DNA of 64,000 nucleotides from a virus (IMGVR_UViG_3300044857_000313:1-64000), one strand, 5' to 3'; positions 16,487 through 63,547 are shown, counted from the first letter of the stretch. The notes: generated by a model from the letters alone, not told the origin. A program made the numbers and translations.

Positions 16487-16509
16487 TTCTTCGTTAGGTG
16501 CCACAATTA
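16487..16509 (-). promoter_or_regulatory. phage RNAP promoter, type A (TAATTGTGGCACCTAAC|GAAGAA)
   Basis: 23-nt T7-architecture motif (-17 TAAT, +1 G) repeated in arm A; tandem with next. Confidence 0.65.
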
Positions 16510-16535
16510 AAAAGACACACCTTGAAAGACTTTCT

Positions 16536-16558
16536 TTCTTCGTTAGATGCCACAATTA
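16536..16558 (-). promoter_or_regulatory. phage RNAP promoter, type A variant (TAATTGTGGCATCTAAC|GAAGAA)
   Basis: 49-bp tandem repeat of the previous unit, one change at -5. Confidence 0.5.
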
Positions 16559-16728
16559 AATGTGTGTCTTGCTACAAAGAGAAAAAGACATACAAAAAGA
16601 GAAATACTTAAATTATTTATATTAATTATTAATTATCATCAATAATTAATAATAAAAGAACTATAAGTATCTTAAAGTATCTTTAAGTATATATAGTTAC
16701 TTTAAGTATCTTATAGTTCTTTTCTCTT
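16559..16728. other. AT-rich repeat region between phage promoters, candidate replication origin (arm A)
   Basis: very AT-rich; 12-bp inverted repeat AAGAACTATAAG/CTTATAGTTCTT, three AAGTATCTT repeats; flanked by phage promoters downstream of the RNAP gene, as at the T7 primary origin. Confidence 0.4.
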
Positions 16729-16751
16729 CTCTTCGTTAGGTGCCACAATTA
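16729..16751 (-). promoter_or_regulatory. phage RNAP promoter, type A
   Basis: TAATTGTGGCACCTAAC|GAAGAG immediately after RNAP stop. Confidence 0.65.
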
Positions 16752-16766
16752 CAAACTATATAATAT

Positions 16767-19400
16767 TTATGCAAAGCAGTATTTGCTGTTTATCACCTCA
16801 TCAAGATTTAAATTTCCTTTTGTTGGAAGTTCAGGTACTTCTTTATTCGAGGGTAAAAGATATTCTACATCATCCAGCCATTCTTCTAAATAATTATGTC
16901 CTTTGTACATGTTGACTAATTCGGTGCGGATCGCCTTAAATATGCTCCCTGCGTGTTCCATATCTGTACCAAAGCTGTCATGAATCATAAAGAAATTATT
17001 GTTCCCCTTTTCTGCCTGATTCATGATAACTCGTTGCATGTGACAAGCATCCATAGAGTGGATAAAGTTCGGTGCGATTGCTTGTGCTTGTCCTCGTGTG
17101 TCTATATCTGTACCCTCTTTAGGGACGTATAAGCGAATGAAACCCCCATTAAAGCGCATCTTACATGTTTCAATATTAGGTACAAACTTGTTCTGTTGAA
17201 TCGGTAAGCCATTTGGGCTTGTCCATGCTACAGCCTCTCCGTTCTTACCAACCATGCCTGCAATCTTTTTCAGCCACTCCATCCCTTCAACAGCCTTTAC
17301 AACCGTTGTGGTTACAGCATCCCAAATAAGACCTGCCATGTAGTTTGCGGCCTGTGAGCGACTCAAGAAAATCGTGTTGTCTTTATGTTCGTCAATCCAT
17401 GGCTTGATAATGTCGCTCTTGAGATTTTCGGAGAATCCATATTTACGGCTTCCATAGGCAAGAGTCATGACGGAGCGTTTGCACACTTTACGCTTGATAC
17501 CATCTGTACCAAACTTTTGTTGTGCATAAGACAACCATTCTGTAGCCAACTCTTTTGTACCGTACACAATGCACTTTTTACCGTTGCTGTCAAGTACATA
17601 TTCGCCATTTTTTTTGTCTTTTTTGTAGTCGTCTGCCGTCCCTGTAATGACATCTTGATGTAAGACAACATTCACCTTATCCGCTACAACTTGATAAATG
17701 TCATGGACGGTTTCGTCGGGAATTAGATTAACGTTCTTGCCCCCTATTTCATCGGCGAGGAGCATGGAGAAATGTTGTAAGCCTGAGCAGGTTCCGTCAA
17801 AGCTGATAGGAAGACCCGACTTGAATCCCACAGCAGACCCGTCATGATCAGATTGATAGACACGGAGTCTTTCAAATTCAAAACAGAAGGCCAGAAATTC
17901 CATGGGACTCTCATCGCCTGCCACTTCGTCCCACCATGTATACGTTAAAGGGGAAGCGGCGCTCTGTAAAATGTTGTCTTCATTATCAAGTACCCATTGG
18001 ATACGGTCATCAAAGGGAATCTTGTCAAGACCTGCAAAGCCTGCGCCTGCAATGTAAAACCACTTGAGGGCTTCGTTACTTGACAAGGGTGTTGGCTCCG
18101 CAAAGAGGAGTAAGGCTTTCTGTGTGTCGTCCCCCTGCGGATTCAAGGCAGGACACATAGGGTATATACGTCCTCTATAGTCTAAGTTCCATGGGAAGTA
18201 GATTTTTTCATACTTGCTGTACTTCTTTGCACAGCCTAAAGAGGTATTTGTTCTAAGCACCTTGGATGCTCTAGCTCTTTCATGCTTGTAATAAGCAACA
18301 AGACGTTTTTTATGAGCTTCAAGTTCTTCGGGTGTCGGGTCAATCAAATGTGGAATTTTGGGCGTTTCGTCCGTTCTGGGAAGGCCCCCTAAGCCCCCAT
18401 GGTTCTCCATAATAGACGCCATGGTATTAAGGATTCTTTCGTTGATTATAAAAGGTGTTGACTGTAAAGCATTAACGCACTTGAAAAGCCATGTTAAGTC
18501 AAGCTGTTCACACTTTTCTAAATACTGTGTCATATAAACATTATGTTGGTTAAAGTTGGCACGGATAAAATGAGCAAAAAGAGCATTTGCACCATAATAA
18601 GCGCCTTCCCATACACTGCTCCACGGTTTAGGGGGTACGACACAGGGATTGAATTTATATGTATTTAAAGCAAGCATATCAATACTTTTTTCCCATGTTT
18701 CTACAAGCCAGTCGACGGCCTTTAAGACTTTACGCTGTCCTAGTTTACCGTTTTTGTTTTCTGCTTCTGTTTTGTACTCAAAGTAGTCACTACCTTTTAA
18801 AACCGCATCCACTAAGACAAGGAGCAATTTATATAAATTGGTAGTGTCTAATTCTTGCGGTGAAAATCCCATAGCTTTATAAGCTTTATGGGCATATTGT
18901 ACTTTGTATTCTTTTTGACCTCGATGTTTCAAACCATCTTCAAAAAAGGCTCCGTCCTGCCGTGTGGCATTTTTTAAGTATTCGTAACTTGTTACTTCTT
19001 CCCTAAAATCGTCCGCAAGCCCATCCATAAAGCAATCAAGGTATGTATAAGTATCGCCTGCGCTATGTAAGACAGCACCAATAAGCGTATTTAAAATTGT
19101 GGTGACACTCATTTTAATTAGTGTGTCTTCATCCCCTTCATAAAGGGCCTTGAGTTGGTTTACAACCCCTTGATATTTTGGCACTACTCCCCTTTTTTTC
19201 TGAGGAAATAAAACGTTTTTCACGTTGTCATAGCAATCAGAAAATACATGTTCCATTAATTTGCTTCCTACTTTTGTTTCTCCTGCTTTACCATCTAAGG
19301 CCGCTTGAGCATAAGTAGCTTTTAATACCTGTTCCGCTAACTGTTTCGATTCTTTTTCAAGTGCTAATTGTTCTTGTAAAGTACCCTTGATTTTTTTCAT
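16767..19400 (-). CDS. single-subunit DNA-directed RNA polymerase (T7 gp1-like), copy A
   Basis: T7 RNAP C-terminal motifs AIAPNFIHSMDA, FFMIHDSFGT, LPTKGNLNLDEV..KYCFA; start aligned with copy B MEKIKGTLQEQ (ORF open to 19406). Confidence 0.95.
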   Translation of the reverse strand: MKKIKGTLQEQLALEKESKQLAEQVLKATYAQAALDGKAGETKVGSKLMEHVFSDCYDNVKNVLFPQKKRGVVPKYQGVVNQLKALYEGDEDTLIKMSVTTILNTLIGAVLHSAGDTYTYLDCFMDGLADDFREEVTSYEYLKNATRQDGAFFEDGLKHRGQKEYKVQYAHKAYKAMGFSPQELDTTNLYKLLLVLVDAVLKGSDYFEYKTEAENKNGKLGQRKVLKAVDWLVETWEKSIDMLALNTYKFNPCVVPPKPWSSVWEGAYYGANALFAHFIRANFNQHNVYMTQYLEKCEQLDLTWLFKCVNALQSTPFIINERILNTMASIMENHGGLGGLPRTDETPKIPHLIDPTPEELEAHKKRLVAYYKHERARASKVLRTNTSLGCAKKYSKYEKIYFPWNLDYRGRIYPMCPALNPQGDDTQKALLLFAEPTPLSSNEALKWFYIAGAGFAGLDKIPFDDRIQWVLDNEDNILQSAASPLTYTWWDEVAGDESPMEFLAFCFEFERLRVYQSDHDGSAVGFKSGLPISFDGTCSGLQHFSMLLADEIGGKNVNLIPDETVHDIYQVVADKVNVVLHQDVITGTADDYKKDKKNGEYVLDSNGKKCIVYGTKELATEWLSYAQQKFGTDGIKRKVCKRSVMTLAYGSRKYGFSENLKSDIIKPWIDEHKDNTIFLSRSQAANYMAGLIWDAVTTTVVKAVEGMEWLKKIAGMVGKNGEAVAWTSPNGLPIQQNKFVPNIETCKMRFNGGFIRLYVPKEGTDIDTRGQAQAIAPNFIHSMDACHMQRVIMNQAEKGNNNFFMIHDSFGTDMEHAGSIFKAIRTELVNMYKGHNYLEEWLDDVEYLLPSNKEVPELPTKGNLNLDEVINSKYCFA

Positions 19401-19440
19401 ATGCATTTACTTCCTTTCTTTAAGTGACACATTTTTTATT

Positions 19441-19463
19441 TATTTCGATAGGTGCCACAATTA
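19441..19463 (-). promoter_or_regulatory. phage RNAP promoter, type A, directly upstream of the RNAP gene
   Basis: TAATTGTGGCACCTATC|GAAATA, about 40 nt upstream of RNAP start. Confidence 0.6.
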
Positions 19464-19582
19464 AACTTTTAGGTTGACAAAATATTTGTTAGTATTTTAA
19501 ACATACGTTTGGTGCTTGATTAAAAAATAATAAAGATAGACAGCAATCATCTATCTACGAACACTTGTTCGATACCTAGGGT

Positions 19583-19622
19583 ATAAAAATGGCGTGTCCC
19601 TGCCGTGTTGGTAAAGACACGC
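19583..19622 (-). terminator. GC-rich hairpin plus U-tract between early genes and RNAP gene
   Basis: GGCGUGUC-16 nt-GACACGCC then AUUUUUAUACC; conserved (one mismatch) in arm B at 63584-63624. Confidence 0.45.
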
Positions 19623-19684
19623 CTTGAGTTAGAACAGTTGTTCGATATTCTATTATTGTATCAAACGTTCGTTTGCCTTGCTAG

Positions 19685-19900
19685 TCACAAGAGGTAGAAT
19701 CTAACTCTTTCCCCATCCATGCAAACGAAAAACTGATAATTAGAAACTTCACTCTGAAAGTCGTCGTCTTTCGTGACAAGCTGGCCCCCAATAGCACATG
19801 AGGCTTCATCACTATCATTCCATTCAGTACCCAATAAGAGAACGCTTTTTCCTTGAAGATGTGCTTGCAAGGCTTCTTGTGCTGTGATTTGTTTCATCAT
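19685..19900 (-). CDS. hypothetical early protein (71 aa)
   Basis: ORF with GGGGG SD; no counterpart in the arm B early region within this window. Confidence 0.5.
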   Translation of the reverse strand: MMKQITAQEALQAHLQGKSVLLLGTEWNDSDEASCAIGGQLVTKDDDFQSEVSNYQFFVCMDGERVRFYLL

Positions 19901-19911
19901 GATTATTCCCC

Positions 19912-20007
19912 CTATAAATGCTCAATGTAATTGGCTAGACAACACAGGCCAATAAGGCAGGCGATGTAGACAAGGCCGTCTATTTTGTGCCAGTAGTGTT
20001 TTATCAT
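19912..20007 (-). CDS. possible 31-aa membrane peptide
   Basis: MIKHYWHKIDGLVYIACLIGLCCLANYIEHL, GGAGAAAG SD 5 nt upstream; below ORF-track size cutoff. Confidence 0.3.
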   Translation of the reverse strand: MIKHYWHKIDGLVYIACLIGLCCLANYIEHL

Positions 20008-20775: not shown

Positions 20776-20845
20776 ATGGCTTGTCTCATCGGTAGGCAGG
20801 TTGCCAGCCTTACCTAGACAAGGGATTTTAGTCCCTTGTTTCGAC
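20776..20845 (-). repeat. 70-nt structured leader element, copy 1
   Basis: near-identical 70-nt copy at 21375-21444; each ends 20-27 nt upstream of a start codon. Confidence 0.5.
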
Positions 20846-21374: not shown

Positions 21375-21444
21375 ATGGCTTGTCTCATCGGTAGGACGGT
21401 AGCCAGCCGTTCCTAGACAAGGGATTTTAGTCCCTTGTTTCGAC
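21375..21444 (-). repeat. 70-nt structured leader element, copy 2
   Basis: see 20776-20845; a compensatory change in the inner stem distinguishes the copies. Confidence 0.5.
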
Positions 21445-21693
21445 AGCGTTTACAAATTCTTGCCATGCTCTTCTTTCTATCCCGTCACAGATATAGTCAA
21501 GGACGGTATTTCTTTCTACCCTGTCGGGAATTTGAATTGAGAGTAAAAGGCGTAAAATGTTTCGCTTATCAAACCAACCGTCGTTTATACTTTCTAACCT
21601 GTCTAAATTGTTTTCTTTGTAAATGTAGGTTTGAATGTAGGACATTTCATCAATCGTGTTTAAAATCTTTTCTTGTAATCTTTCTTCTAACAT
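21427..21693 (-). CDS. hypothetical early protein (88 aa), first gene after host-type promoters
   Basis: ORF with AGAGAGG SD. Confidence 0.5.
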   Translation of the reverse strand: MLEERLQEKILNTIDEMSYIQTYIYKENNLDRLESINDGWFDKRNILRLLLSIQIPDRVERNTVLDYICDGIERRAWQEFVNAVETRD

Positions 21694-21708
21694 ATGGGCC
21701 TCTCTTTC

Positions 21709-21738
21709 TGTATATCAGTGGATATACACACTAGTTAA
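21709..21738 (-). promoter_or_regulatory. host-type promoter (TTAACT-N18-TATACA) overlapped by palindromic operator O1 (21710-21727)
   Basis: operator GTATATC-AGTG-GATATAC covers spacer and -10. Confidence 0.45.
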
Positions 21739-21785
21739 AAATTTTTAGGGGAGTGTGTTTCTTGTGTTCCCCTTTCGTTGTATAC

Positions 21786-21814
21786 AGTATATCAGTGGAT
21801 ATACATTTTGTCAA
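21786..21814 (-). promoter_or_regulatory. host-type early promoter (TTGACA-N17-TATACT) overlapped by operator O2 (21787-21804)
   Basis: consensus -35, 17-nt spacer; the same 18-bp palindrome as O1 lies over spacer and -10. Confidence 0.6.
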
Positions 21815-21874
21815 GCATTTTTCAAAAGAAATTTTAGAAAGACACACAAAACCGCATTACTAAGCCATTTATTA

Positions 21875-21903
21875 TAGACAACTTTCTCATTTCATGGTAT
21901 GAT
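21875..21903 (+). promoter_or_regulatory. host-type promoter for RHH gene (TAGACA-N17-TATGAT with TG extension)
   Basis: divergent from the early promoters; about 50 nt upstream of the RHH start. Confidence 0.55.
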
Positions 21904-21953
21904 ATGTATATCAAAAGACACACATATATAGAAATAAGAAGGGAGTGAAAAGA

Positions 21954-22112
21954 ATGACAGGCAAAGAAGACAAGCACAAAGATGTAATGATACAAGTACG
22001 TGTACCCAAAGAAGTACGAGACGAGTTTAGACAGTTAGTGGATAAAAAAGCACAGACACAAGCTAAAGTGATCAGACAGTTAATAGAAAGATACATACAA
22101 GATAATAAATAA
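21954..22112 (+). CDS. ribbon-helix-helix (CopG/Arc-like) DNA-binding protein, candidate repressor
   Basis: 52-aa ORF below track cutoff: MTGKEDKHKDVMIQVRVPKEVRDEFRQLVDKKAQTQAKVIRQLIERYIQDNK; GGGAG SD; beta-strand then two helices pattern. Confidence 0.6.
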   Translation: MTGKEDKHKDVMIQVRVPKEVRDEFRQLVDKKAQTQAKVIRQLIERYIQDNK

Positions 22113-22120
22113 AGACACAA

Positions 22121-22166
22121 AAAGGCCCCACACAAGCGTAAATGCTCATGTAGGGCCTTTTATTTA
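22121..22166. terminator. bidirectional hairpin terminator between convergent genes
   Basis: AAAGGCCC..24 nt..GGGCCTTT then TTATTT on plus; A-run on the other side. Confidence 0.55.
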
Positions 22167-22167
22167 T

Positions 22168-22491
22168 CTATCTATCATGTTTTTGATTAAAGACAACATT
22201 ATTCATATTTTCTATTGTTCTTAATTGTGATGTATCTTTATCAAGCATATCTAAATATATACATATCTCTTCTAAATAATGATTTTCTAATGATATTTTA
22301 AATAAATTAAGTATTGTCATTATTAAAGCTACATCAAGTTTGTTGTCTTTATTATTGATTGTGTATAAAGCATAAACACAAGCAACCTCTAATAAATAAA
22401 AATGTTGTTTCATCTTTACATATTTAAAGTAAGTCACAAAAAGAAGGAATAAAGTTAATAGAAGACACGCAATAATTATTTTGTTCACCAT
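22168..22491 (-). CDS. AT-rich membrane protein (moron-like)
   Basis: N-terminal TM IIIACLLLTLFLLFVTYF; visibly lower GC than the rest; start set at MVNKII with AAGGGAG SD. Confidence 0.5.
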   Translation of the reverse strand: MVNKIIIACLLLTLFLLFVTYFKYVKMKQHFYLLEVACVYALYTINNKDNKLDVALIMTILNLFKISLENHYLEEICIYLDMLDKDTSQLRTIENMNNVVFNQKHDR

Positions 22492-22615
22492 TTCCAACAC
22501 TCCCTTTATGATATTTTATATCCCTATCATATCATAAATATCTATGTGTGTCTTTGTGTCTTCTCATCGTACTTATTATGTACTATACAGTGTGATTGTA
22601 GCGACGACTACAAGG

Positions 22616-22655
22616 ATACTAAGAGGTACTAAGAGAGTCTAAGAGGTACTAAGTG
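22616..22655. repeat. four tandem 10-bp repeats (ATACTAAGAG GTACTAAGAG AGTCTAAGAG GTACTAAGTG)
   Basis: read directly; related TCTAAGCG x2 at about 23154-23171. Confidence 0.6.
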
Positions 22656-22888
22656 ATACCGTAAAGATACCAACAGATGACAGAACACATGTAAAACCAC
22701 GATTGAACAAAATTTCAAAACACAACGGATAACCATGCACACCCATGCACACCCCTTCACAAACATATGAACAATCATTCATATATAAAATAAAACAGAT
22801 ACAGTTGATTCAGTTAACTATCTAAAAAACACCCTACATACTTACACGGTTCCGTGTGTATCATATAAAAATCATATGTAAACACGTA

Positions 22889-22917
22889 TTTACAAGCACT
22901 TTATAAGCACGTATAAT
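22889..22917 (+). promoter_or_regulatory. strong host-type promoter (TTTACA-N17-TATAAT) facing the integrase gene
   Basis: perfect -10; spacer contains AGCAC-N6-AGCAC, a motif recurring at 24299 and 24451. Confidence 0.55.
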
Positions 22918-23194
22918 GTTGGTAGAGCTTGATAGTAAGTGATGTAGGGTATTATAAATTGTAATGGCCGATACAATAAGGGCTGGCTAGGTTGCCATGG
23001 TGTGCAATAAGAGCGGAAAAGACTGAAAATGTACTAGAGGTACTGTGAAGATGTGAAGCGGCCGAAACGAAGGCCATACGGGGGAAAGCGGAACTCGAAG
23101 CCCGACACGTAAGGCCTCACAGATTTTTTAGAATTTTTAAAGTCCGAAGCGTATCTAAGCGATTCTAAGCGTACCCGAAAGGAGAAGACACACA

Positions 23195-24298
23195 ATGCCA
23201 AGAACACGACAAAGACGAAATAAGGGTGAAGGTTCGATAACCAAGACACCCAATGGGAAGTACAAAGCCACCATCACGATTGGAGTGGGTATTGATGGCA
23301 AGCAAAAGAGGAAGTCGGTAACAAGAGACACCAAGCGAGAAGTCATCGACGCCATCACGGAAATAAGACACAAATATAATATAGGTGATGTATCAAAGGG
23401 TGTGTCTAAGAGCGTCAAGGACGTTTGTGATGAGTTTTTAGACACCAAGGAACAGAAACTCACTGTGTCCTCTTTCGTGTCTTACAAAATGCACATCAAG
23501 GCATTTAAAGAGGTGTTTGGAAATATGATGATGGAAAATATAACAAAGACCATGATTGAGGATTACTTTAAGTCCCTGTCCCCTCATCATTATAAACCAA
23601 CTACCTTAAAGACCAAGAAGGCTATATTGTCTATCTTCTTTAGAGAAGCAAAGAAGGCAGGGTATATCAAAGAGAATATAATGGAGACAGCCAGTATCCC
23701 TATCAAGCGTGTCTTACCCAAGGCATCTACTATGATACTCCCCACTCCTGAACAGTTCCATAGGATACTAGAGGAAGCGGAAAAGTATGCCCATTGGTAT
23801 TATGTGCTCCTCTATTTTGCCTCTGTTACAGGAATGAGACGAGGAGAACTTTTAGGATTGAAATGGGACTGTGTGGATAAAGACACCAAGACGATCAGAA
23901 TTAATAATCAAATAAACATCAAGGGTGTAGACAGTCCATTAAAGACCCCTGCGGCCTATCGGACAATTCATGTCACCCCAAAGGCTTTTGAGGAGCTAGA
24001 CACACTGCCACATGAAGGAGCTTATGTTTTTTCGCGTCCCAAAGCCCCTACAAGGCCTGTTACAAGAGCTATGGTGTCTTTGGCTACCAACAGGGTATTT
24101 AAGGCCGCTGAGGCCCCAAAGGGATTTACTTTTCATGATGTAAGACATTATCACGCAACACAGCTTTTAAAGCATGGTATTAACCCAAAGGTTGTCAGTA
24201 GGAGATTAGGACACACATCGGTAGTTACTACCCTCAACATCTACTTTAATTATCTCCCCAGTATGGACGAAGAGGCCAGTGTTGTCTTAGACACGTAA
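23195..24298 (+). CDS. int: tyrosine integrase
   Basis: 367-aa ORF; N-terminal SAM-like arm domain, catalytic region TGMRRGE..HDVRHYHAT..LGHTSVVTTLNIY (R..HxxR..Y). Confidence 0.9.
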   Translation: MPRTRQRRNKGEGSITKTPNGKYKATITIGVGIDGKQKRKSVTRDTKREVIDAITEIRHKYNIGDVSKGVSKSVKDVCDEFLDTKEQKLTVSSFVSYKMHIKAFKEVFGNMMMENITKTMIEDYFKSLSPHHYKPTTLKTKKAILSIFFREAKKAGYIKENIMETASIPIKRVLPKASTMILPTPEQFHRILEEAEKYAHWYYVLLYFASVTGMRRGELLGLKWDCVDKDTKTIRINNQINIKGVDSPLKTPAAYRTIHVTPKAFEELDTLPHEGAYVFSRPKAPTRPVTRAMVSLATNRVFKAAEAPKGFTFHDVRHYHATQLLKHGINPKVVSRRLGHTSVVTTLNIYFNYLPSMDEEASVVLDT

Positions 24299-24463
24299 GT
24301 GCTTATAAGGTGCTTATATGAGAAATAGACACGAGTACATGAAATTATAAATGGCTAAAAATAGCGGTTTTCCTCTGTTCTTAGCTATTTATAATTTTAT
24401 TCCATATTCTATCAAGAATAAGACAACCATGCTGTTTATAAGATATGTGAGTGCTTATAGGTG

Positions 24464-24706
24464 CTAAAGGGTAATACTTGTGTCTATCGAGTGGCGCAAG
24501 AACTCGTATAGACCTTTGCGGTGTATTCTCCAATGAGTACCTATCTTAAATGCTTTCAAGGATTCATTATAGCACAAGGCGTAAACAGTAGACAAGGGAA
24601 CTCCTAGCATCTCTGAAACTTCTTTAGGAGAGAAGGTAAGGCGAGTGTCCCATTTATGAGAAGGAGTTGAGGTGAAACCATCAACATCAATACTTAAATA
24701 GGCCAT
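24464..24706 (-). CDS. xis: excisionase-like helix-turn-helix protein
   Basis: FSPKEVSEMLGVPLSTVYALCYNESLKAFKIGTHWRI typical of the Xis/HTH_17 family; convergent with int. Confidence 0.55.
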   Translation of the reverse strand: MAYLSIDVDGFTSTPSHKWDTRLTFSPKEVSEMLGVPLSTVYALCYNESLKAFKIGTHWRIHRKGLYEFLRHSIDTSITL

Positions 24707-24846
24707 AAGGCTCCTTTCGTAGACTAAAGGAAATCTTAGTAGACTTGAGATATGAAAAAATAGTAAGAAGCTTTAAGAATCTCTTTCTTTGATTTATCAT
24801 CATCATCAACAATCATCATTAAAGAATCTCTAGTCCCATATCTGTC

Positions 24847-24893
24847 ATAATAATAAAATATGAGGTTCTAGTCAGAACCGACTAGAACCTCAT
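24847..24893 (-). terminator. strong hairpin terminator downstream of terL-distal phage promoters
   Basis: perfect 14-bp stem AUGAGGUUCUAGUC-GGUUCU-GACUAGAACCUCAU then AUUUUAUUAUUAU. Confidence 0.65.
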
Positions 24894-24930
24894 AGATTCT
24901 ATTAGATACTATATATACTTTTCGTCTCTT

Positions 24931-24953
24931 TTCTTCGGTTGGTGCCACAATTA
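24931..24953 (-). promoter_or_regulatory. phage RNAP promoter-like site, type A core (TAATTGTGGCACCAACC|GAAGAA)
   Basis: shares -17..-5 with arm A promoters; just after terL stop. Confidence 0.5.
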
Positions 24954-24957
24954 ATTT

Positions 24958-24980
24958 TTTGTTTAATGGTGCCACAATTA
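24958..24980 (-). promoter_or_regulatory. phage RNAP promoter-like site, type A core, divergent -4..+1
   Basis: TAATTGTGGCACCATTA|AAC. Confidence 0.35.
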
Positions 24981-24988
24981 ATTTCTGT

Positions 24989-25603
24989 CTAATTATCATG
25001 TAGCTCTCTAATAGCTTTTATACATCTATTATTATGCGAACTATTTGTATAATTAGGCAATACGGATTCATTCAGCCAATCCTCAAGCTGTTCAGCTGTC
25101 AGCTCTGTAAGTTGACTATCTTCATCCACATCCATGCGCTCCATAAAATAAGACACCCCAATAGTCAGGGCATCCAATCTATCATCATGACTTAGGGCGT
25201 TCTTATCACGACATAAGCGTGTCATTTGATAAATCAGGGAATAATGATAGTCCTGTTGGAAGACCTTAAAATCCTGTTCTACTACTGGACGATTCACAAT
25301 TAGCTTATGCCGCATCATAACCGGCTCTAGGGTGTCTATCATACGCAATTCCTTTTGCCCTCTATTGGTAACAGGTTCAATGCCGCAAGGGTGGATTTTA
25401 TTGAAGATAGGTGTCATCAACTTAGTGAACATGCCATCCCCAAAGTTATCTTCGGGAACTACAACATCCACATCCCAGAACTTAGCACGATTTGCCATCT
25501 GAGTCAGCGTCAAGTCCGAATATCCCTCTTTAAAGCCCCCTACATCCATAAGGAACAAATAGCCATTCAGGTACTTTAAGATTGCATAGACTGTTTCGTC
25601 CTT
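24989..25603 (-). CDS. terL: terminase large subunit, exon 2 (nuclease domain)
   Basis: begins KDETVYAILKYLNGYLFLMDVGG, continuing the ..AIDPSGRG of exon 1; no ATG (track start is TTG). Confidence 0.85.
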   Translation of the reverse strand, partial: KDETVYAILKYLNGYLFLMDVGGFKEGYSDLTLTQMANRAKFWDVDVVVPEDNFGDGMFTKLMTPIFNKIHPCGIEPVTNRGQKELRMIDTLEPVMMRHKLIVNRPVVEQDFKVFQQDYHYSLIYQMTRLCRDKNALSHDDRLDALTIGVSYFMERMDVDEDSQLTELTAEQLEDWLNESVLPNYTNSSHNNRCIKAIRELHDN

Positions 25604-26414
25604 CAATCAGCCTATGCGTTCTGCTTTCCAACCCTTTGAGTGATGTCGGTTTCCTTTAGCCACTTGACGTAGATTTTGGGGTGAAAGATTATGCTCTCTG
25701 CAAAAAGCAGTAAAAGAAAAAGGCTCATACATCGTACCATCAGGTGCAATAAGCCTGAATCTTTCACCCTGTCCATAATTATGAGGAACATGCCCTTTTT
25801 GAAGAGTAGTAGGGAGACAGTCAGCACATACTGTCCCTGACTTGCGTTTTTGTAAATATTTACCACAAATAGGACAACGAACTGTTTTTCTGTCTCCCCC
25901 TGCTCTTACATTCCACCCCATATGCATTTTAGGACGTAGATTATATTCTATTGTTAATGCTTCTTCTTTTGGTAACATAGCAATTAAATCAATTTGAATA
26001 TTATCCTTACCCAGTTGTCTTAGAATTGTGCCAACAGGTCTCTTGCTACACATATGCTGACTAAGACGATAGGAAAGACTACGGCGAGTAACACCCACAT
26101 AACCTTCCTGTATATTTCTGTTTCCTACTTCATGGATATGGTACACTTTATATAATCTTGTTTTTTCTCTAAACAATAACATCACTCTCTTTTCTTTTTA
26201 GTGTTACGGTACATCGTTAGGGTACCTCACTATATTGCTATAGTGTTCAGACTATATCTTCTATCAAAAGATAGTGCGCTGTTTCCACCGAACCATTGCG
26301 GTGTACTAATAGTCGTTGAACGTTTCCTTATAAAAGGACTTCGCTGCTGATTGTCTTAGAAAGAGTTTCCAGCAATTAAGCGCATTTTTTAACGTAGGAG
26401 CAAGGACGTATTTT
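25604..26414 (-). mobile_element. group I intron-like element in terL carrying a GIY-YIG gene
   Basis: guide sequence GUCCUU-GCUCCUA (26395-26407) pairs with 3' exon AAGGAC and 5' exon UAGGGGU (U.G at splice site); intron ends in G; 229-nt ORF-free 5' part with several hairpins incl. GCAA tetraloop. Confidence 0.7.
25607..26185 (-). CDS. GIY-YIG homing endonuclease
   Basis: YKVYHI..GYVGVT..R..QH..E..GWNVRAGG plus C-terminal NUMOD-like HHSKGW. Confidence 0.8.
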   Translation of the reverse strand: MMLLFREKTRLYKVYHIHEVGNRNIQEGYVGVTRRSLSYRLSQHMCSKRPVGTILRQLGKDNIQIDLIAMLPKEEALTIEYNLRPKMHMGWNVRAGGDRKTVRCPICGKYLQKRKSGTVCADCLPTTLQKGHVPHNYGQGERFRLIAPDGTMYEPFSFTAFCREHNLSPQNLRQVAKGNRHHSKGWKAERIG

Positions 26415-27497
26415 ACCCCTACCCGATGGGTCTATAGCCATCACTGTTGTCTGATAGGGCATCGTTTCGGGACTACGGGACAGCTCACTGTAGTAATAGT
26501 CCCCTGCCATGGCTGTACAGGGAATATCAGACAAGAGCTGTTCCCTGCCTTTTGCCCATGCCCATTTGAGGCTACTTTCCTTCATATCAAGGTTAGTGAT
26601 AATCAAATCAGACACCTTCAACGGATACTTTTCAGCATCCGACAACCGAGTATTGAGCATATACTGGAGAGCAAACCCTGCTTTCCCATAAGACAAGGAA
26701 CGCTTCGCAATTTCTTCCTCATTGAATCGCAAGGGGTCTGTAGGCTTCCCTTCAAGACTAGGGTCAGCTTTCAGTTTGTTCCAAATAGAGGGAGCAAGGG
26801 AATCACCATAATTATCTTCTACCCTTGATAATTGAGGATACAAGACAGGCCAGATACGCGCAATATATCCACGGTCTTGTAAGGTGTTGTACAGACTTGA
26901 TTCAGTCTGTGGTGTACCGAGATATATGATCTGGCCGTTCGGTTTCAAGATAGCATCAAATTCCTTTACGGCCTCTGAGAGCTTATCACGCTGTTGCTGT
27001 GTTGCTGAGTTTTTCGGGACTTCTACGTCATCGGCAATTAGAATGTCTGCACGTGTCCCTGTAATCTGCCCAGTGATACCAATGGACTTTACAGAGGGGG
27101 AAATATCAGGAACGACACCCCCAACATCAAAGATATTCTGTGTGTCTAACTGCCCCTTGTCTGCAATCATGTCAGACAAGAAAGGGAGTGTCTGTATGAT
27201 ACGCTTGATAAAGCGAGCGTTCGCATCCGCTCTGTCCCCAGAGGCAGACACAATCAAAATCTTTAGCTGTCTTTCCTTCCACAATCTCCACACTACATAA
27301 GCACATGTCAAGAAGGACTTAGCGACACCACGGAACCCCTCAAGAATGATACGGTCTTTAGGGGGGTTCTGGAGATAGTTTGCAATGTCAATTTGAATGG
27401 GTGTCGGCTGTGGAAGGTCAATAGACCGCCATACAATATAGACAAAGGCCCAGAAGTGTTCACGTGCCTTCTGGACATCCGCTTCACTCCATTTCAA
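26415..27497 (-). CDS. terL: terminase large subunit, exon 1 (ATPase domain)
   Basis: Walker A-like GFRGVAKS, ILIADDVE; ORF runs 12 codons into the intron before its stop (26376). Confidence 0.85.
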
Positions 27498-27501
27498 TCT
27501 A

Positions 27502-27741: not shown

Positions 27742-27747
27742 TTATCA

Positions 27748-57526: not shown

Positions 57527-57859
57527 TTAGTCGTCCCCATAGTGTACAGCAAGTGTGTATTTGTTCTTAATGTCCCTCATGGTTTTGCGCTGTGCATCGG
57601 ACATGTCCTTTTCATTAGCACAACCAACCAACAGCACATAGACGGAATCTTCCGCATGAGCGAGTCTATAGTCACCATAAGCAAGGAAGGGAATCCCTTC
57701 TTTTACTTCACCGTTCGGCATCACAATCAAATGATACCCGATATTGAACAGCCCTTCTCGTCGCTGTTCTACATAAATTTCCCGAACGGTCTTCACCTTC
57801 GGTTCAAATAAGACACGCACCATGTTAGTTTCCTCTCTTTCTTTGTACTTTAAATTCAT
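57527..57859 (-). CDS. gp3.5-like protein lacking zinc ligands, copy B
   Basis: homolog of 13379..13711. Confidence 0.55.
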   Translation of the reverse strand: MNLKYKEREETNMVRVLFEPKVKTVREIYVEQRREGLFNIGYHLIVMPNGEVKEGIPFLAYGDYRLAHAEDSVYVLLVGCANEKDMSDAQRKTMRDIKNKYTLAVHYGDD

Positions 57860-57874
57860 TTTCTCACCCCAATA

Positions 57875-58228
57875 TTATTTTTTATTTTTGGGGATAAGAC
57901 CTTTTGTAGACTTCTTCTTTTCTCTAAACCATGCGTCGGGAATCTGTCTAGTGGAGTATTTAAATCCATTTTTCTCCGCCCAATCCGCATAGGTTGTCTT
58001 ACTGCCTTTATACAACTTCAACTTAGGATTCTGGAAGACAAACCGAATATCCAAATCAGGATACTGCATCTTGATAAGCAAGTGCTTCTGTCTGTCTTCC
58101 CTCTCAAAAATCCCTTTTGCTTCTATAATGATTCCATTTGGCAACACAAAGTCTGGAGTATACTTATGCTGTGTAGCAGGTTTTTCATAATTGATGTAGT
58201 ACATCTCATACTTTTCCTGCTTCTTCAA
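57875..58228 (-). CDS. endonuclease I (gp3-like), copy B
   Basis: homolog of 13724..14053; track start is a TTG inside the conserved frame, which extends to about 58304. Confidence 0.8.
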   Translation of the reverse strand: MKKQEKYEMYYINYEKPATQHKYTPDFVLPNGIIIEAKGIFEREDRQKHLLIKMQYPDLDIRFVFQNPKLKLYKGSKTTYADWAEKNGFKYSTRQIPDAWFREKKKSTKGLIPKNKK

Positions 58229-58340
58229 CTCTTGAATCTGTGCGCTAATTGTGTCTTCAAAATGGCTTCTCTTTTTAGGTGGTCTGTATGTATACGCACC
58301 CCCATTACAAAAACTTCTTCTCAGGTCTTATCACCACACT

Positions 58341-58973
58341 TTAGAAATCTTCACCGTCATCCGAACCATCCGTGAACGGTACGTCTACATCCGAACGTGT
58401 GTCTTCTTCATCGTCCTCAATGACAGACGTAGAATCAAAGGCGTCTTCATGCTTCTTAAAGCCAAAAGAGCTTGCATCCTGCCCATTACCATACGGAACG
58501 TACTTCAACAACTGAACCGCCTGCAAGCGGAAAGACACACCAAAGTTTTTCGATGTATTGTAATACGGAAAGAGCTGATAGGCTACAGCAACAACACTAC
58601 CATTCCCAATAGAACTCTTGATTTTTCGAGTGACAGGGCGTTCAGCACCATCAAAGACAGGAACAACCTTGTCAATTTCTTTGCCAGCTTTCGTTACAAT
58701 GTGAGCATTGGTAACAAATTTGACGCTTGCGTCACCATTATCATCTTCACGGTACGAACCCATGTTAGGCTCAGCGGCAAACTTTTTGTTCTTGAGTGTT
58801 TCTTTAAATTCTTCCCAAATCGTCTGGGCTTCCTGCATCAAGTTATTCATGTCTTCAACAGACGGAACAAGTGTAATGCTATATTTATTTGTGTCTGTGC
58901 CATTAAAGGTTTCTGTGTCTGCTAAATGACACCACATAGCCTTCCCTGTAATTACACCATCATTCATGTTCAT
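58341..58973 (-). CDS. ssDNA-binding protein (gp2.5-like), copy B
   Basis: homolog of 14362..14994. Confidence 0.7.
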   Translation of the reverse strand: MNMNDGVITGKAMWCHLADTETFNGTDTNKYSITLVPSVEDMNNLMQEAQTIWEEFKETLKNKKFAAEPNMGSYREDDNGDASVKFVTNAHIVTKAGKEIDKVVPVFDGAERPVTRKIKSSIGNGSVVAVAYQLFPYYNTSKNFGVSFRLQAVQLLKYVPYGNGQDASSFGFKKHEDAFDSTSVIEDDEEDTRSDVDVPFTDGSDDGEDF

Positions 58974-58988
58974 GTTTCATTCTCCTTT

Positions 58989-59222
58989 TTATAATAAGCT
59001 TGCACGAGTAACTAAAATCATGCCGTCGGCATTTTCGAGTAGTAAATCTGCTATGGCTGTCTTAATGCCATCATCAAGCTTTACATGCTTCCTGCGGGAC
59101 TTAGCGGCAATTACGCCTAAAAGACACAAGGTATCATTGTCATAAGTTCCCCCATATAAAAATCGCAGGAGCTTGTTTGCATAGACAGTATAAGGTTTGT
59201 TCATTGTTTCCTTCATGTTCAT
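58989..59222 (-). CDS. hypothetical protein (77 aa), copy B
   Basis: homolog of 15012..15239. Confidence 0.5.
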   Translation of the reverse strand: MNMKETMNKPYTVYANKLLRFLYGGTYDNDTLCLLGVIAAKSRRKHVKLDDGIKTAIADLLLENADGMILVTRASLL

Positions 59223-59243
59223 TTCTCCTTTTTGTAATGGTTA

Positions 59244-59936
59244 TTACAATACGATACGTTCCCCGTTCTTGATTGTATCTAACCACATTTCATAGACACA
59301 AAGTTTATCATAATCAGCTTTCATATCTTCCTCAGTACCTTTATGCCCCATACGGAGCCGATATTTAAGGATGTTACCTTTCAGGAATCCAATAAGTTCT
59401 TCATGACTAAAGAAAGCTTGCATCACAAGAATAGGCTCTACAACTGCATTACGGTAATGTTTATCATGCAGGATGTCTTCCTGTGTGTCTTCTTCTTCAC
59501 AGATAGGAAAAACACGCTCTTCATTAACCATGATTACTTCATCACTGCCACGGAACCGTACATCGTATATTACTGGGCAAGTTTCAGGAAATACCGATAT
59601 GTGTAGACCAACAACTACTGCATAACCACTTTCGTGTGGTGGCATAGCCGCCCAATCCGACATGTCTACCCATACAATATCAAAGATATTAATTTTTCTC
59701 ATGGTTAATCTAGTCCTTTCCTGTGTGTCTTCTTCTTCACAGATAGGAGTAATACACCGTTCATCAACGGTGATTACCTTATGACTTCCACGAAACTGTA
59801 CACAATACATTACTGCGTCGCTTCCAGAGATAACACGTATGTCAATAACTACTGCATAACCACTATCATGTGGTGGTGTGAACGAACAGTTAGACATATC
59901 AACCCACACGGTATCGTCAATATTAATTTCTCTCAT
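59244..59936 (-). CDS. modular protein with DUF3310/SaV-like C-terminal domain, copy B (tandem N-terminal modules)
   Basis: two ~77-aa repeats (..VWVDMS..PPH.SGYAVV..FRGS..ICEEEDTQE) then the shared C-terminal domain. Confidence 0.45.
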   Translation of the reverse strand: MREINIDDTVWVDMSNCSFTPPHDSGYAVVIDIRVISGSDAVMYCVQFRGSHKVITVDERCITPICEEEDTQERTRLTMRKINIFDIVWVDMSDWAAMPPHESGYAVVVGLHISVFPETCPVIYDVRFRGSDEVIMVNEERVFPICEEEDTQEDILHDKHYRNAVVEPILVMQAFFSHEELIGFLKGNILKYRLRMGHKGTEEDMKADYDKLCVYEMWLDTIKNGERIVL

Positions 59937-60477: not shown

Positions 60478-60500
60478 TTCTTCACTACGTGGCACAATTA
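60478..60500 (-). promoter_or_regulatory. phage RNAP promoter, type B (TAATTGTGCCACGTAGT|GAAGAA)
   Basis: first of three tandem units (49-52 bp period). Confidence 0.65.
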
Positions 60501-60526: not shown

Positions 60527-60549
60527 TTCTTCACTACGTGGCACAATTA
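60527..60549 (-). promoter_or_regulatory. phage RNAP promoter, type B
   Basis: identical 23-mer. Confidence 0.65.
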
Positions 60550-60578: not shown

Positions 60579-60601
60579 TTCTTCACTACGTGGCACAATT
60601 A
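60579..60601 (-). promoter_or_regulatory. phage RNAP promoter, type B
   Basis: identical 23-mer. Confidence 0.65.
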
Positions 60602-60837
60602 AATGTTTGTGTCTTATCCTTCGATAAAGAGAAAAAGACACACAAAAAGAGAAATATTTAAATTATTTATATTAATTATTAATTATCATCAATAATAAAT
60701 AATAAAAGAGAAATATTTAAATTATTTATATTAATTATTAATTATCATCAATAATAAATAATAAAAGAACTATAAGTATCTTAAAGTATTTTTAAGTATA
60801 TATAGTTACTTTAAGTATCTTATAGTTCTTTTCTCTT
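60602..60837. other. AT-rich repeat region, candidate replication origin (arm B), with 59-bp tandem duplication
   Basis: unit AGAGAAATATTTAAATTATTTATATTAATTATTAATTATCATCAATAATAAATAATAAA at 60648-60706 and 60707-60765; single copy in arm A. Confidence 0.4.
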
Positions 60838-60860
60838 CTCTTCACTACGTGGCACAATTA
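60838..60860 (-). promoter_or_regulatory. phage RNAP promoter, type B, just after RNAP stop
   Basis: TAATTGTGCCACGTAGT|GAAGAG. Confidence 0.65.
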
Positions 60861-60875
60861 CAAATCATGTTATAT

Positions 60876-63485
60876 TTATGCAAAACAATACTTACTATTG
60901 ACTACATCATCAAGATTTAGGTTCCCCTTCGAGGGAATTTTAGGTATTTCTTTTCCTTCGGGTAACATATATTCAACATCCTTTAACCACTCCTCTAAGT
61001 AATTGTGGTCTTTGTACATCTTGACTAATTCAGTACGAATAGCCCTGAATAAGTCCCCTGCATGTTCAATATCTGTGCCAAAGCTATCATGAATCATGAA
61101 AAAGTTGATATTTCCTTTTTCAGATTGATTCATGATTACCCTTTGCATGTGACACGCATCCATTGAATGAATAAAGTTAGGGGCGATTGCTTGTGCTTGA
61201 CCCCTTGTGTCTATATCGGTGCTGTCTTGGGGTACATAGATGCGAATGAAACCGCCATTAAAGCGCATACGGCACGTTTCCATGTTAGGTACAAATTTAT
61301 TCTGTTGGATAGGTAAGCCATTAGGGCTTGTCCATGCTACAGCTTCCCCATTCTTGCCAATCATCCCTGCAATCTTTTTCAGCCATTCCATGCCCTCTAC
61401 GGCCTTTACAACCGTGGTGGTTACAGCGTCCCAAATGAGACCTGCCATGTAGTTTGCGGCCTGTGAGCGACTCAAGAAGATAGGATTGTCTTTATGTTCA
61501 TCCAACCATGGTTTGATAATGTCTGATTTGAGATTTTCGGAGAAGCCATAAGTTCTCGACCCATACGCAAGGGTCATGACAGAACGCTTGCACACTTTGC
61601 GCTTGATACCGTCCGAACCGAATTTTTCGCGGCCATACATCAGCCATTCAGACGCAAGCTCTTTTGTGCCATATGCAATGCACTTTTTGCCCTTGTTGTC
61701 AAGTACAAAATCGCCTGTTTTCTTATCTTTTTTGAAGTCATCTGCTGTCCCTTCTAATGCGTCTTTATGTAAGACAACATTTACTTTATCGGCCACAACT
61801 TGATAAATGTCATGTACGGTTTCGTCGGGAATTAGATTGACGTTCTTACCCCCTATTTCATCCGCAAGAAGCATAGAGAAGTGCTGTAGACCTGAGCATG
61901 TACCATCAAAGCTAATAGGAAGACCTGATTTGAATCCAACAGCAGACCCGTCATGCTCAGCTTGATAGACACGGAGTCTTTCAAACTCAAAGCAGAAGGC
62001 CAGAAATTCCATGGGACTTTCATCACCTGCCACTTCGTCCCACCATGTGTACGTTAAAGGGGAAGCGGCACTCTGTAAAATGTTGTCTTCATTGTCAAGT
62101 ACCCATTTGATACGGTCATCAAAGGGAATCTTGTCAAGACCTGCGAATCCTGCGCCTGCGATGTAGAACCATTTTAATGATTCTTCATTTGTCAAGGGTG
62201 TTGGCTCTGCAAATAGCAAAAGAGCTTTTTGTGTGTCGTCGCCTTGCGGATTCAAGGCAGGACACATTGGGTAGATACGGCCACGATAGTCTAAGTTCCA
62301 TGGGAAGTAGATTTTTTCATACTTGCTATACTTTTTAGCACAACCTAACGTGGTATTTGTTCTAAGAACCTTGGATACTCTGGCCCGTTCGTGCTTGTAA
62401 TACACAACAAGCCGTTTCTTGTGCGCTTCTAACTCCTCGGGTGTCGGGTCAATCAAATGTGGAATTTTGGGCGTTTCGTCCGTTCTGGGAAGGCCCCCTA
62501 AGCCCCCATGGTTCTCCATGATAGACACCATGGTATCAAGTACACGCTGATTGATTATGAATGGAGTGGCTTGCAGGGCATTTACACATTTAAAAAGCCA
62601 TGCCAAGTCAAGCTGTTCGCATTTTCGGAGATATTGAGTCATAAATACATTTTTTTGGTTAAAATTAGCACGGATGAAATGTGCAAAGGGGGCATTAGCT
62701 CCGTAATAAGCACCTTCCCATACTGTTGTCCATGGTTTGGGTGGGATGACACAAGGACTAAATTTATAGCTATTCAACGCCATAATATCAATACTTTTCG
62801 CCCATGTCTGTACAAGCCAATCATTCGCTTTAAGTAGCTTTTGATTCCCTTCTGCTTTATAGTCAAAGTAGCCACTCCCTTTTATGACTGCTTCTAGGAT
62901 AACAGTCATTAGCTTATAAAGACCTTCTTTATCCATAGTTTGGGGCGCAAAGTTCATAATTTTATATGCTTTTTGTGCATATCGCACTTTAAATGTCATT
63001 TGCATACGATGTTTCAGGCCATCTTCAAAAAAAGCTCCATCTTGTCGTGTTGCCTGCTTTAAGTAGTCGTAGCTAATGACTTCTTCAGTGAAAGAAGACA
63101 CCAGTTCATGTAAGTTATTGTTAAAGTCTACATATGTATCCTCAGAGGTATGCATGACAAAACCAATCAAAGTATTTAGAGTAGAGGTTATGCATGTCTT
63201 AATAAGTGTGTCTTCATCCCCTTCATATAAGCTTTTAAGTTGGTTCACAACACCTTGATATTTAGGCACTACGCCACGCTTTTTCTGGGGAAATAAAACG
63301 TTTTTAACGTTCGTATAGCAGTCTGAAAAGACATGCTCCATCAGCTTACTGCCCACTTTTGTTTCCCCTGCTGTGCCTTTTAAAGCCGCTTGTTCATAGG
63401 TAGCACGTAGCACCTTTTCTGCAAAGTCTTTTGATTCTTGTTCAAGTGCTAATTGTTCCTGTAAAGTACCTTTGATTTTTTCCAT
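60876..63485 (-). CDS. single-subunit RNA polymerase, copy B
   Basis: 869 aa from MEKIKGTLQEQ with AGGAAGG SD; the 23-codon upstream extension in the ORF track contains a phage promoter and has no counterpart in copy A. Confidence 0.95.
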   Translation of the reverse strand: MEKIKGTLQEQLALEQESKDFAEKVLRATYEQAALKGTAGETKVGSKLMEHVFSDCYTNVKNVLFPQKKRGVVPKYQGVVNQLKSLYEGDEDTLIKTCITSTLNTLIGFVMHTSEDTYVDFNNNLHELVSSFTEEVISYDYLKQATRQDGAFFEDGLKHRMQMTFKVRYAQKAYKIMNFAPQTMDKEGLYKLMTVILEAVIKGSGYFDYKAEGNQKLLKANDWLVQTWAKSIDIMALNSYKFSPCVIPPKPWTTVWEGAYYGANAPFAHFIRANFNQKNVFMTQYLRKCEQLDLAWLFKCVNALQATPFIINQRVLDTMVSIMENHGGLGGLPRTDETPKIPHLIDPTPEELEAHKKRLVVYYKHERARVSKVLRTNTTLGCAKKYSKYEKIYFPWNLDYRGRIYPMCPALNPQGDDTQKALLLFAEPTPLTNEESLKWFYIAGAGFAGLDKIPFDDRIKWVLDNEDNILQSAASPLTYTWWDEVAGDESPMEFLAFCFEFERLRVYQAEHDGSAVGFKSGLPISFDGTCSGLQHFSMLLADEIGGKNVNLIPDETVHDIYQVVADKVNVVLHKDALEGTADDFKKDKKTGDFVLDNKGKKCIAYGTKELASEWLMYGREKFGSDGIKRKVCKRSVMTLAYGSRTYGFSENLKSDIIKPWLDEHKDNPIFLSRSQAANYMAGLIWDAVTTTVVKAVEGMEWLKKIAGMIGKNGEAVAWTSPNGLPIQQNKFVPNMETCRMRFNGGFIRIYVPQDSTDIDTRGQAQAIAPNFIHSMDACHMQRVIMNQSEKGNINFFMIHDSFGTDIEHAGDLFRAIRTELVKMYKDHNYLEEWLKDVEYMLPEGKEIPKIPSKGNLNLDDVVNSKYCFA

Positions 63486-63524
63486 GGTATTACCTTCCTT
63501 TCTAGTAGGCGGAACTATTAATAT

Positions 63525-63547
63525 TTCTTCAATACGTGGCACAATTA
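63525..63547 (-). promoter_or_regulatory. phage RNAP promoter, type B, directly upstream of RNAP gene
   Basis: TAATTGTGCCACGTATT|GAAGAA. Confidence 0.6.

Follow-up and report, generated by a model that had tools for sequence, protein, structure and literature searches.

Two diverged single-subunit RNA polymerases (RNAPs), called A and B here, are encoded in the viral DNA stretch IMGVR_UViG_3300044857_000313:1-64000 (64,000 nucleotides, all of which we refer to as the window), and a 23-nt motif with the architecture of a T7 promoter recurs beside both genes in two versions. The question raised by this locus is whether the phage polymerase uses the motif as its promoter and, if so, whether each polymerase has become fitted to its own version, as an earlier note on the sequence had proposed. 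Based on the window and on its relatives, we consider it likely that the motif is the promoter of the phage's own single-subunit RNAP, and that polymerases A and B prefer different versions of it, with which they have co-evolved. The window comprises about 1.47 laps of a 43.5-kb genome (one lap being 43,555 bp): arm A (1-20,000), which includes the gene of RNAP A, recurs as arm B (43,556-64,000), which includes that of RNAP B.

The two polymerases and the motif copies in the window

RNAP A is encoded on the minus strand at 16767-19406 (879 amino acids from MHMKKIKG, or 877 from MKKIKG at 19400) and RNAP B, on the same strand, at 60876-63485 (869 amino acids from MEKIKG, in an open frame that extends to 63554). 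Both match PF00940 above its cut-off of 22 bits (A with 295 bits, E = 1e-87; B with 302 bits, E = 7e-90), and PF14700 alone stays below its own (27-29 against 30.1 bits). In HMMER, the clade profile aligned end to end with T7 RNAP (profile positions 9-876 to T7 residues 34-883, E = 5e-153). The catalytic motifs FDGTCSG, KRSVMTLAYGS and IHDSFGT are retained, identical in A and B, and align with those of T7, in which D537, K631, Y639, H811 and D812 were taken as the catalytic residues. Judging from their sequences, A and B are intact T7-family single-subunit enzymes.

The two enzymes are 83% identical overall, with 85% identity over residues 1-107, 56% over residues 108-243 and 89% over residues 244-877. 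The heavy N-terminal divergence described in the earlier note is thus borne out by the second segment, which also contains an 8-residue indel aligned to the tip of the intercalating hairpin of T7 (residues 229-246). Here RNAP A has the segment KTEAENKNGKLGQRKVLKA (residues 212-230; 18717-18773, minus strand), eight residues of which are absent from the short counterpart in RNAP B, KAEGNQKLLKA (62826-62858, minus strand). The specificity loops, encoded on the minus strand at 17106-17171 in A (ETCKMRFNGGFIRLYVPKEGTD) and at 61215-61280 in B (ETCRMRFNGGFIRIYVPQDSTD), read exactly as previously quoted. When the substitutions were mapped on T7 with two HMMER alignments, the column that differed among the four loop contacts listed (R746, N748, R756 and Q758) was that of N748, occupied by lysine in A (K749, codon AAG at 17160-17162) and by arginine in B (codon CGT at 61269-61271). 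The segment aligned with the AT-rich recognition loop of T7 (FPQKKRGVVPKYQG) is identical in A and B, matching the TAATTGTG half of the promoter, which is invariant in both types.

Eleven copies of the motif, six of A type and five of B type, were found. All are intergenic and lie on the minus (coding) strand, in the direction of the genes. They combine TAAT at -17, a CAC core, a G at the start and a purine-rich initial sequence. The A-type consensus is TAATTGTGGCACCTAAC and the B-type consensus TAATTGTGCCACGTAGT, each followed by GAAG, and the promoter template sequences named for the two types are TAATTGTGGCACCTAACGAAGAA and TAATTGTGCCACGTAGTGAAGAA. The initial sequence is GAAG or GAAA in ten of the 11 copies; the copy at 24980 has AACA.

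Each polymerase is flanked by its own version, and all previously listed copies were recovered on the coding strand; we designate them by their higher coordinate. Downstream of RNAP A, predicted A-type promoters occupy 16487-16509 (TAATTGTGGCACCTAAC followed by GAAGAA, in a 49-nt tandem unit; 40.4 bits), 16536-16558 (38.5 bits, with a T at -5, a variant fixed in the A' relatives described below) and 16729-16751 (39.4 bits), the last directly past the RNAP A stop codon. Another one, at 19441-19463, lies directly upstream of the RNAP A gene and might serve for self-activation. The B-type promoters lie at 60478-60500 (TAATTGTGCCACGTAGT followed by GAAGAA; 42.3 bits) and, detected by both pattern and weight matrix, at 60527-60549, 60579-60601, 60838-60860 (directly past the RNAP B stop codon) and 63525-63547 (upstream of the RNAP B gene). 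Finally, an A-type promoter at 24931-24953 follows the terminase gene terL and is directed to a hairpin and an excisionase-like gene (xis). It is preceded by an A-type core at 24958-24980 (TAATTGTGGCACCATTA followed by AACAAA), which has no initiating G and forms the first, conserved site of the post-terL pair. The '-9' base (G in A, C in B) discriminates every copy, position -5 does so in all copies except 16558, and positions -2/-1 differ between the types in most copies, all of which agrees with the earlier description.

A loose pattern matched 20 times, against 6.25 +/- 2.45 matches in shuffled sequences, and none of 100 shuffles reached 20. With type-specific weight matrices, the RNAP-flanking sites scored 36-42 bits for the cognate type and 13-23 bits for the other one, a separation of about 20 bits. 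Diverged or mixed copies that might have been missed were sought with the same matrices: in the whole 64 kb, no further match exceeded the shuffle maxima (11-14 bits), so that neither arm shows hidden copies or mixed A and B cores. The claim that both post-terL sites carry the A-type core holds well for 24953 (31.1 bits with the A matrix), but 24980, without the initiating GAAG, is at 12.0 bits barely above the A shuffle maximum of 11.3. Degenerate second copies are located at the ribosome-binding sites of RNAP A (AAAATGTGTCACTTAAA, 19435-19413) and RNAP B (TAATAGTTCCGCCTACT, 63520-63498). Near-matches at 1184 and 44739 are merely the context of the capsid start codon, those at 3220 and 46765 lie inside the portal gene and those at 8120 and 50977 on the opposite strand, and these were rejected as promoters. 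On the circular map the promoters form three separate loci no more than about 8.5 kb from the RNAP gene, and according to the weight-matrix scan no copy precedes the structural genes.

Polymerase and promoter versions among the relatives

About 35 related RNAP loci, cited below by their L numbers, were obtained from human gut samples through scans of IMG/VR and metagenomes. A nucleotide search of the RNAP regions against 50,697 GenBank phage records gave no match, an RNAP scan of 185,579 species genomes revealed no relative, and in protein searches the closest RNAPs of isolated phages reached about 33% identity at most. The co-variation set comprised 39 RNAP-bearing loci, including the window, with the promoter clusters downstream of the RNAP gene. 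Lysine in the N748 column goes with G immediately 5' of CAC in 20 loci (57 sites), and arginine with C in 16 loci (40 sites), a rule followed in 36 of the 39 loci; arginine with G was found in none of the 39. Among the exceptions, the distant lineage L169 combines glutamine with GTCGCAC (Q with G).

At least nine promoter types are present in the relatives, each with its own loop. They include type A (core GTGGCACCTAAC, loop ETCK), A' (GTGGCACTTAAC, ETCK), B (GTGCCAC[G/A]TAGT, ETCR), C (GTGCCACC[T/A]TGT, EICR), F (GTGCCACTATCC, EMCR), G (GTGCCACCTAGT, ETCR), D (TAATTGGTGCACAATAA, ETYK) and E (GTGGCACGGATT, EIFK). In an RNAP tree from which the loop had been left out, the lineages with K and R are interleaved. 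Moreover, the arginine codon is CGT in B and F and AGG in C, G and L009, and the lysine codon is AAG or AAA; codons vary synonymously while the residue stays, indicating that the amino acid is maintained. Bases -5 to -1, on the other hand, track the N-terminal clade, and with it the segment that matches the intercalating hairpin in the alignment. The most telling case is L139, which has a B-like N-terminus with the short hairpin and B-like bases from -5 to -1 (ATAGT), yet a loop lysine and, at each of the three downstream sites, a G at -9; it uncouples the -9 change from the changes at -5 to -1.

The change of polymerase is accompanied by a change of all dispersed promoter copies in the genome. 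The cores of the post-terL pair carry the type of their own genome (D/D, B/B, A'/A') within flanks that are near-identical among relatives, and this switching includes the D type, which is shifted by one base. The co-variation involves the specificity loop and the N-terminal domain, and no other gene examined. Since both versions change together in the relatives, co-evolution of polymerase and promoter, as put forward in the earlier note, is the best reading. Recognition would be modular: a constant FPQKKRGVVPKYQG segment facing a constant TAATTGTG half, lysine or arginine in the N748 column facing G or C at -9, and an N-terminal clade matched to bases -5 to -1. Such a modular arrangement suggests that A and B prefer different promoter versions.

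Several observations weigh against this reading. The two HMMER alignments disagree over the second strand of the loop, the direct contact of K or R with the -9 base is putative, and the change from K to R is a conservative one. The start site and the numbering derive from sequence, and when anchored on CAC the motif has one base more before +1 than the promoters of T7 or SP6, so that our '-9' may correspond to -8 of T7, a base that is not the one contacted by N748. Because no promoter is more than about 8.5 kb away from the RNAP gene, part of the association is due to linkage. The loci come from two collections that are partly duplicated (the same contig appearing twice), and their counts are consequently not counts of independent events. 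Two distant lineages, L150 and L151, have lysine with C in a GTTCCAC context. In the A-type genome L014 the tandem cluster has four A-type sites and closes with one of D type (4605); in D-type genomes (L007, L008, L145-L148 and L166) the D-type site before the RNAP gene is itself preceded by a promoter of A or B type; the post-terL sites of L042 are mixed; and L034 has T at -9. Moreover, 5-6 sites per genome are few compared with the 18 of T7 (PMC11880802).

Non-cognate sites such as these leave room for cross-use of promoters. A GTTCCAC variant lies on the RNAP ribosome-binding site in many B, C and G genomes, and the polymerase of a relative might be able to switch on RNAP genes that bear non-cognate sites. 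From the comparison of the sequences, co-evolution appears to be the rule, and strict orthogonality of the A and B pairs only putative.

The persistence of non-cognate sites in several genomes also speaks for a different interpretation, to which we give a rather low probability: the sites would be real promoters, but the A/B differences would be tolerated drift carried along with the linked RNAP module by recombination, and both enzymes would use both versions. The proximity of all sites to the RNAP gene and the conservative nature of the K to R change are compatible with it, as is the mosaicism of these phages, whose early regions are exchanged between RNAP types (that of L008 is 96% identical to the early region of A although its RNAP is of D type). 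Drift does not readily account, however, for dispersed copies at three separate loci sharing the derived base of their genome, nor for post-terL cores that switch type within near-identical DNA; as several separate copies change in concert within conserved flanks, linkage alone is no explanation. The tracking of G/C by K/R over interleaved lineages and synonymous codon changes, with no case of R with G, and the decoupling seen in L139 argue in the same direction. Much less probable, to the point of being nearly discarded, is that the motif is no promoter at all but the site of some other protein (a repressor operator, a replication iteron or a packaging signal) that resembles the promoters of the T7 family. 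The copies are few, none stands before the structural genes, the one at 24980 has no G start, and the tandem 49-nt units lie beside the RNAP gene, at the place of the primary origin in T7. The T7 origin itself consists of such promoters, though, and the two roles are not exclusive; the strict orientation with the genes, the T7/SP6-like layout with its purine-rich start and the co-variation with the specificity loop and the N-terminal domain, and with no other gene examined, all oppose a function other than promoter.

The situation preferred here, that of co-evolved pairs, is similar to that of T7 and T3, in which closely related single-subunit polymerases go with promoters that differ at a few upstream bases, and the residue that differs in our case aligns with N748 of T7. 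N748 of T7 and D749 of T3 read positions -10/-11. Unlike this Asn/Asp pair at -10/-11, lysine and arginine go here with G and C just 5' of CAC; furthermore, the present enzymes are about 33% identical to the RNAPs of isolated phages, and they belong to temperate phages with 5-6 promoters instead of 18. In T7, a cluster of promoters directly follows the RNAP gene and further sites lie close to the terL end, and the same placement is seen here. SP6/K1E-type promoters read ATTTAGGTGACACTATAGAAGAG; the GTG-N-CAC core and the initial GAAG are alike, and our motif differs from them by its upstream TAAT, as in T7, and by one base more between CAC and +1. Co-variation of specificity-loop residues with promoter bases is established for T7-like phages by genome mining (Zhu et al. 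2025, PMC11880802), positions 748, 756 and 758 dominating specificity in T7-like RNAPs. Our approach and conclusion are the same, namely co-variation between a small number of loop residues and a small number of promoter bases in natural phages, but that study used sequenced phage genomes, with no mention of prophages or metagenomes, whereas the clade described here is uncultivated. As SP6- and K1E-type enzymes were reported not to follow the T7-derived rules (PMC11880802), the pairing of Lys/Arg with G/C lies outside the reach of that study.

Origin of the two laps

The long genes of the window are all on the minus strand and follow the gene order of T7, from early genes and RNA polymerase through DNA metabolism, portal and capsid, tail, internal proteins, fibre and lysis to terminase. 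Between the laps, read along the minus strand, terL with its group I intron is followed by two motif copies, a T-run hairpin, the excisionase-like gene and an att-like spacer. Next come a tyrosine integrase, encoded on the opposite strand, then some 3.5 kb of small early genes, and RNAP A. Nucleotide identity between the arms ranges from 74% to 96% per 500 nt; it is about 92% for the structural genes and 75-85% near the RNAP gene, and the figure of about 95 percent similarity given in the earlier note is therefore too high. An exact repeat of 160 nt marks the lap boundary (1-160 = 43556-43715) and is the longest exact run shared by the arms.

Two contigs of JGI 3300045594 are equal to the window at 21,625-36,099 and 35,973-43,715, overlapping one another by 127 nt, and the second of them (L178) terminates precisely at 43715, the end of the repeat. 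The junction of integrase, att, xis and terL is present at 100% identity in three independent assemblies. The run SRR16378841, one of the source samples together with SRR16378547 and JGI 3300045594, holds both a piece of the B arm (57,558-59,507) and the integrase region of the A lap. Most simply, positions 1-43,555 would be one full lap of phage A, and the sequence would then pass into a co-occurring variant B through the 160-nt shared node. Polymerases A and B may therefore not stand on one real molecule, the window resembling a path through two co-occurring strains. The post-terL sites beside the junction are of A type and the equivalent sites of the relatives follow the type of their own RNAP, so that these sites belong to A and not to B.

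We see some chance, albeit a small one, that both polymerases do lie on one molecule, a tandem double lysogen in Megasphaera made up of prophage B, an attP-like hybrid junction and prophage A, in which distinct promoter specificities would stop the co-resident phages from activating each other. The 1.47 laps run unbroken through an attP-type junction between xis and integrase, integration of these phages is real (see below), sequences of the A lap and the B arm share a sequencing run, and a real double lysogen would produce an identical assembly graph. Against this, host DNA is absent from the window, and the exact repeat, the independent contig end at 43715 and the 127-nt overlap of the neighbouring contigs are expected of a graph path through two strains that share a node. 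In addition, the sites next to the junction are of A type, which by the rule of the relatives assigns them to A, and L136, one of eight contigs of relatives with 54-183 kb, has by its coordinates room for one prophage plus flanks.

We also considered that two database records had been joined end to end; since B stays in register past the 160-nt repeat, this is indistinguishable from an assembly path and was folded into that reading. A 40-mer of the junction was not found in the viral contigs searched, nor a B-specific 38-mer in the metagenome contigs searched. When the two RNAPs, the two portal proteins and one open reading frame (ORF) of the B arm were looked up exactly, no identical record was returned, only smaller or single-copy genes of the window being on record.

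Integration, a proposed transcription programme and what the clade may tell

The tyrosine integrase is encoded on the plus strand at 23195-24298, and the exact protein with the same junction occurs in three other assemblies. The excisionase-like gene, with an HTH_17 domain, lies downstream of the post-terL promoters at 24464-24706 (minus strand). Between them, at 24410-24450, is an attP-like junction made up of a xis arm, a core and an integrase arm, at which relatives change to Megasphaera DNA. Several relatives are in fact proviruses that run into GC-rich DNA beyond both the integrase end and the xis end; a scan with a host flank identified Megasphaera, the flanking protein being 99% identical to a protein of M. 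intestinihominis. The attL was found in L002, L006 and L008, the attR in L034, L035 and L037, and an empty attB in the uninfected Megasphaera genomes L111, L113 and L114, a 10-bp core (TATGTTATAA) being common to attL and attR and present in the empty attB. Together with the flanks, these sites indicate integrating T7-like phages of Megasphaera, and on this genomic evidence the clade consists of T7-like podophages with a temperate lifestyle in this host.

The att site is intergenic, and a tRNA scan for an att target found none in the window or in ten relatives. The integration site of the relatives lies between a terminator and the promoter of a gene of 436 amino acids, the neighbour of a gene that by eye is dCTP-deaminase-like. 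The window has a core variant (TATGGAATAA) that differs from TATGTTATAA and is shared with L011, and for which no host site was found; the different core and different flank of L011 suggest a second integration specificity. The A'-type provirus L006/L144, in the 59-kb contig OGYE01000033.1, has a frameshift in its RNAP gene (L006 4420-7055, L144 1501-4130), where an A6 run at nt 716 has lost one base, either a sign of a decaying prophage or a homopolymer sequencing error; its IMG/VR entry begins with Megasphaera flank.

The order of events that we propose starts with the host polymerase, which, going by consensus promoter matches, would read the early region into the RNAP gene. By its position and by analogy with LUZ100, a temperate T7-like Pseudomonas phage in which a phage promoter before the RNAP gene was read as positive feedback (PMC10134795), the promoter upstream of the gene (19463 or 63547) would then be fired by the new phage RNAP in a positive feedback. 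The same enzyme would fire the three to four tandem promoters past its own gene, leading into about 35 kb of replication, structural, lysis and packaging genes on the same strand, and the post-terL pair toward the hairpin and xis, with transcripts presumably stopping at the hairpin or reaching xis. This hairpin (24859-24894, minus strand) has a stem of 15-16 bp followed by a T-run, is terminator-like and begins 42 nt past the start site of the 24953 promoter; its stem shows compensatory changes in L036 and L037.

Another hairpin (GGGGAG...CTCCCC, then TTTTTATTCTTTT) stands on the minus strand shortly past the major capsid gene, at about 130-165 (and 43685-43720). The T-phi terminator of T7 occupies the same position. 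Strong, divergent sigma-70-like matches at 21814-21786 (minus) and 21875-21903 (plus) flank the pair formed by the two copies of a 19-nt palindromic repeat (GTATATCAGTGGATATACA; 21710-21728 and 21787-21805). Next to them, an ORF of 55 amino acids (21945-22112, plus) looks ribbon-helix-helix-like by eye, and the gene call of another assembly gave a weak RepB-RCR_reg match. The arrangement suggests that 21700-22120 is a possible lysogeny switch, from which the host polymerase would read toward the RNAP gene. Between early genes there is also a 70-nt direct repeat (20776-20845 and 21375-21444, 93% identical) with two small hairpins, near which two independent contigs end (21415 and 21625). A role in RNA processing or regulation is conceivable, comparable to that of the RNase III sites in the early region of T7.

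Among the remaining genes, terL is interrupted by a group I intron at 25602-26420 (RF00028, 78.7 bits; Rfam match 26228-26465, minus strand), with an ORF of 192 amino acids at 25607-26185 that has no Pfam match and is probably a homing endonuclease. The gene is uninterrupted in the relatives L005/L036 and L034, the intron thus being present in some genomes and absent in others. A Dam-like methyltransferase at 27748-28202 consists of two adjacent ORFs (73 and 88 amino acids), also called as two genes in an independent assembly, and may be a frameshifted or split gene. The tail-fibre gene (30456-32417), with a Phage_T7_tail N-terminus, contains KTSETNA-like heptad repeats and then an Ala/Ser-rich stretch.

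LUZ100 shares with these phages an integrase in a T7-like genome, a phage promoter directly upstream of the RNAP gene and a terminator right after the major capsid gene, and its distinct promoter motif was taken as evidence for orthogonality among T7-like pairs (PMC10134795). Unlike in LUZ100, the host here is Megasphaera (Negativicutes), the candidate regulator is the small ORF described above and not a MarR protein, and integration is documented by attL, attR and empty attB in genomes. Because RNAP/promoter co-variation (PMC11880802) and temperate T7-like phages (PMC10134795) have already been described, our finding belongs to a known kind: the joint change of polymerase and promoter is a new example of an established principle, not a new kind of system. 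What it offers is an apparent rule of a single residue and a single base, in an SP6-like promoter context and in an uncultivated phage clade of a gut anaerobe. The clade forms a tight natural series of RNAP and promoter variants, in which enzymes of 60-98% identity go with at least nine promoter types, and if the discrimination is true it would provide compact, near-isogenic orthogonal transcription parts.

More tentatively, and with the odds against it, the switching of promoter specificity might act as a compatibility barrier among temperate T7-like phages of the same host, A and B being two such lineages that share their cells, perhaps in a tandem double lysogen. With each RNAP gene placed behind its own promoter in an autocatalytic loop, a resident prophage would be switched on by an incoming relative of the same specificity. 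If this were true, the Lys/Arg-G/C switch, together with N-terminal changes matched to bases -5 to -1, would have repeatedly made mutually non-activating lineages. In any case, T7-like phages of a human-gut Firmicute of the Gram-negative type are found here as integrating prophages, with few promoters and with the RNAP gene behind its own promoter, one more indication, among a growing number, that a strictly lytic life is not universal among T7-like phages.

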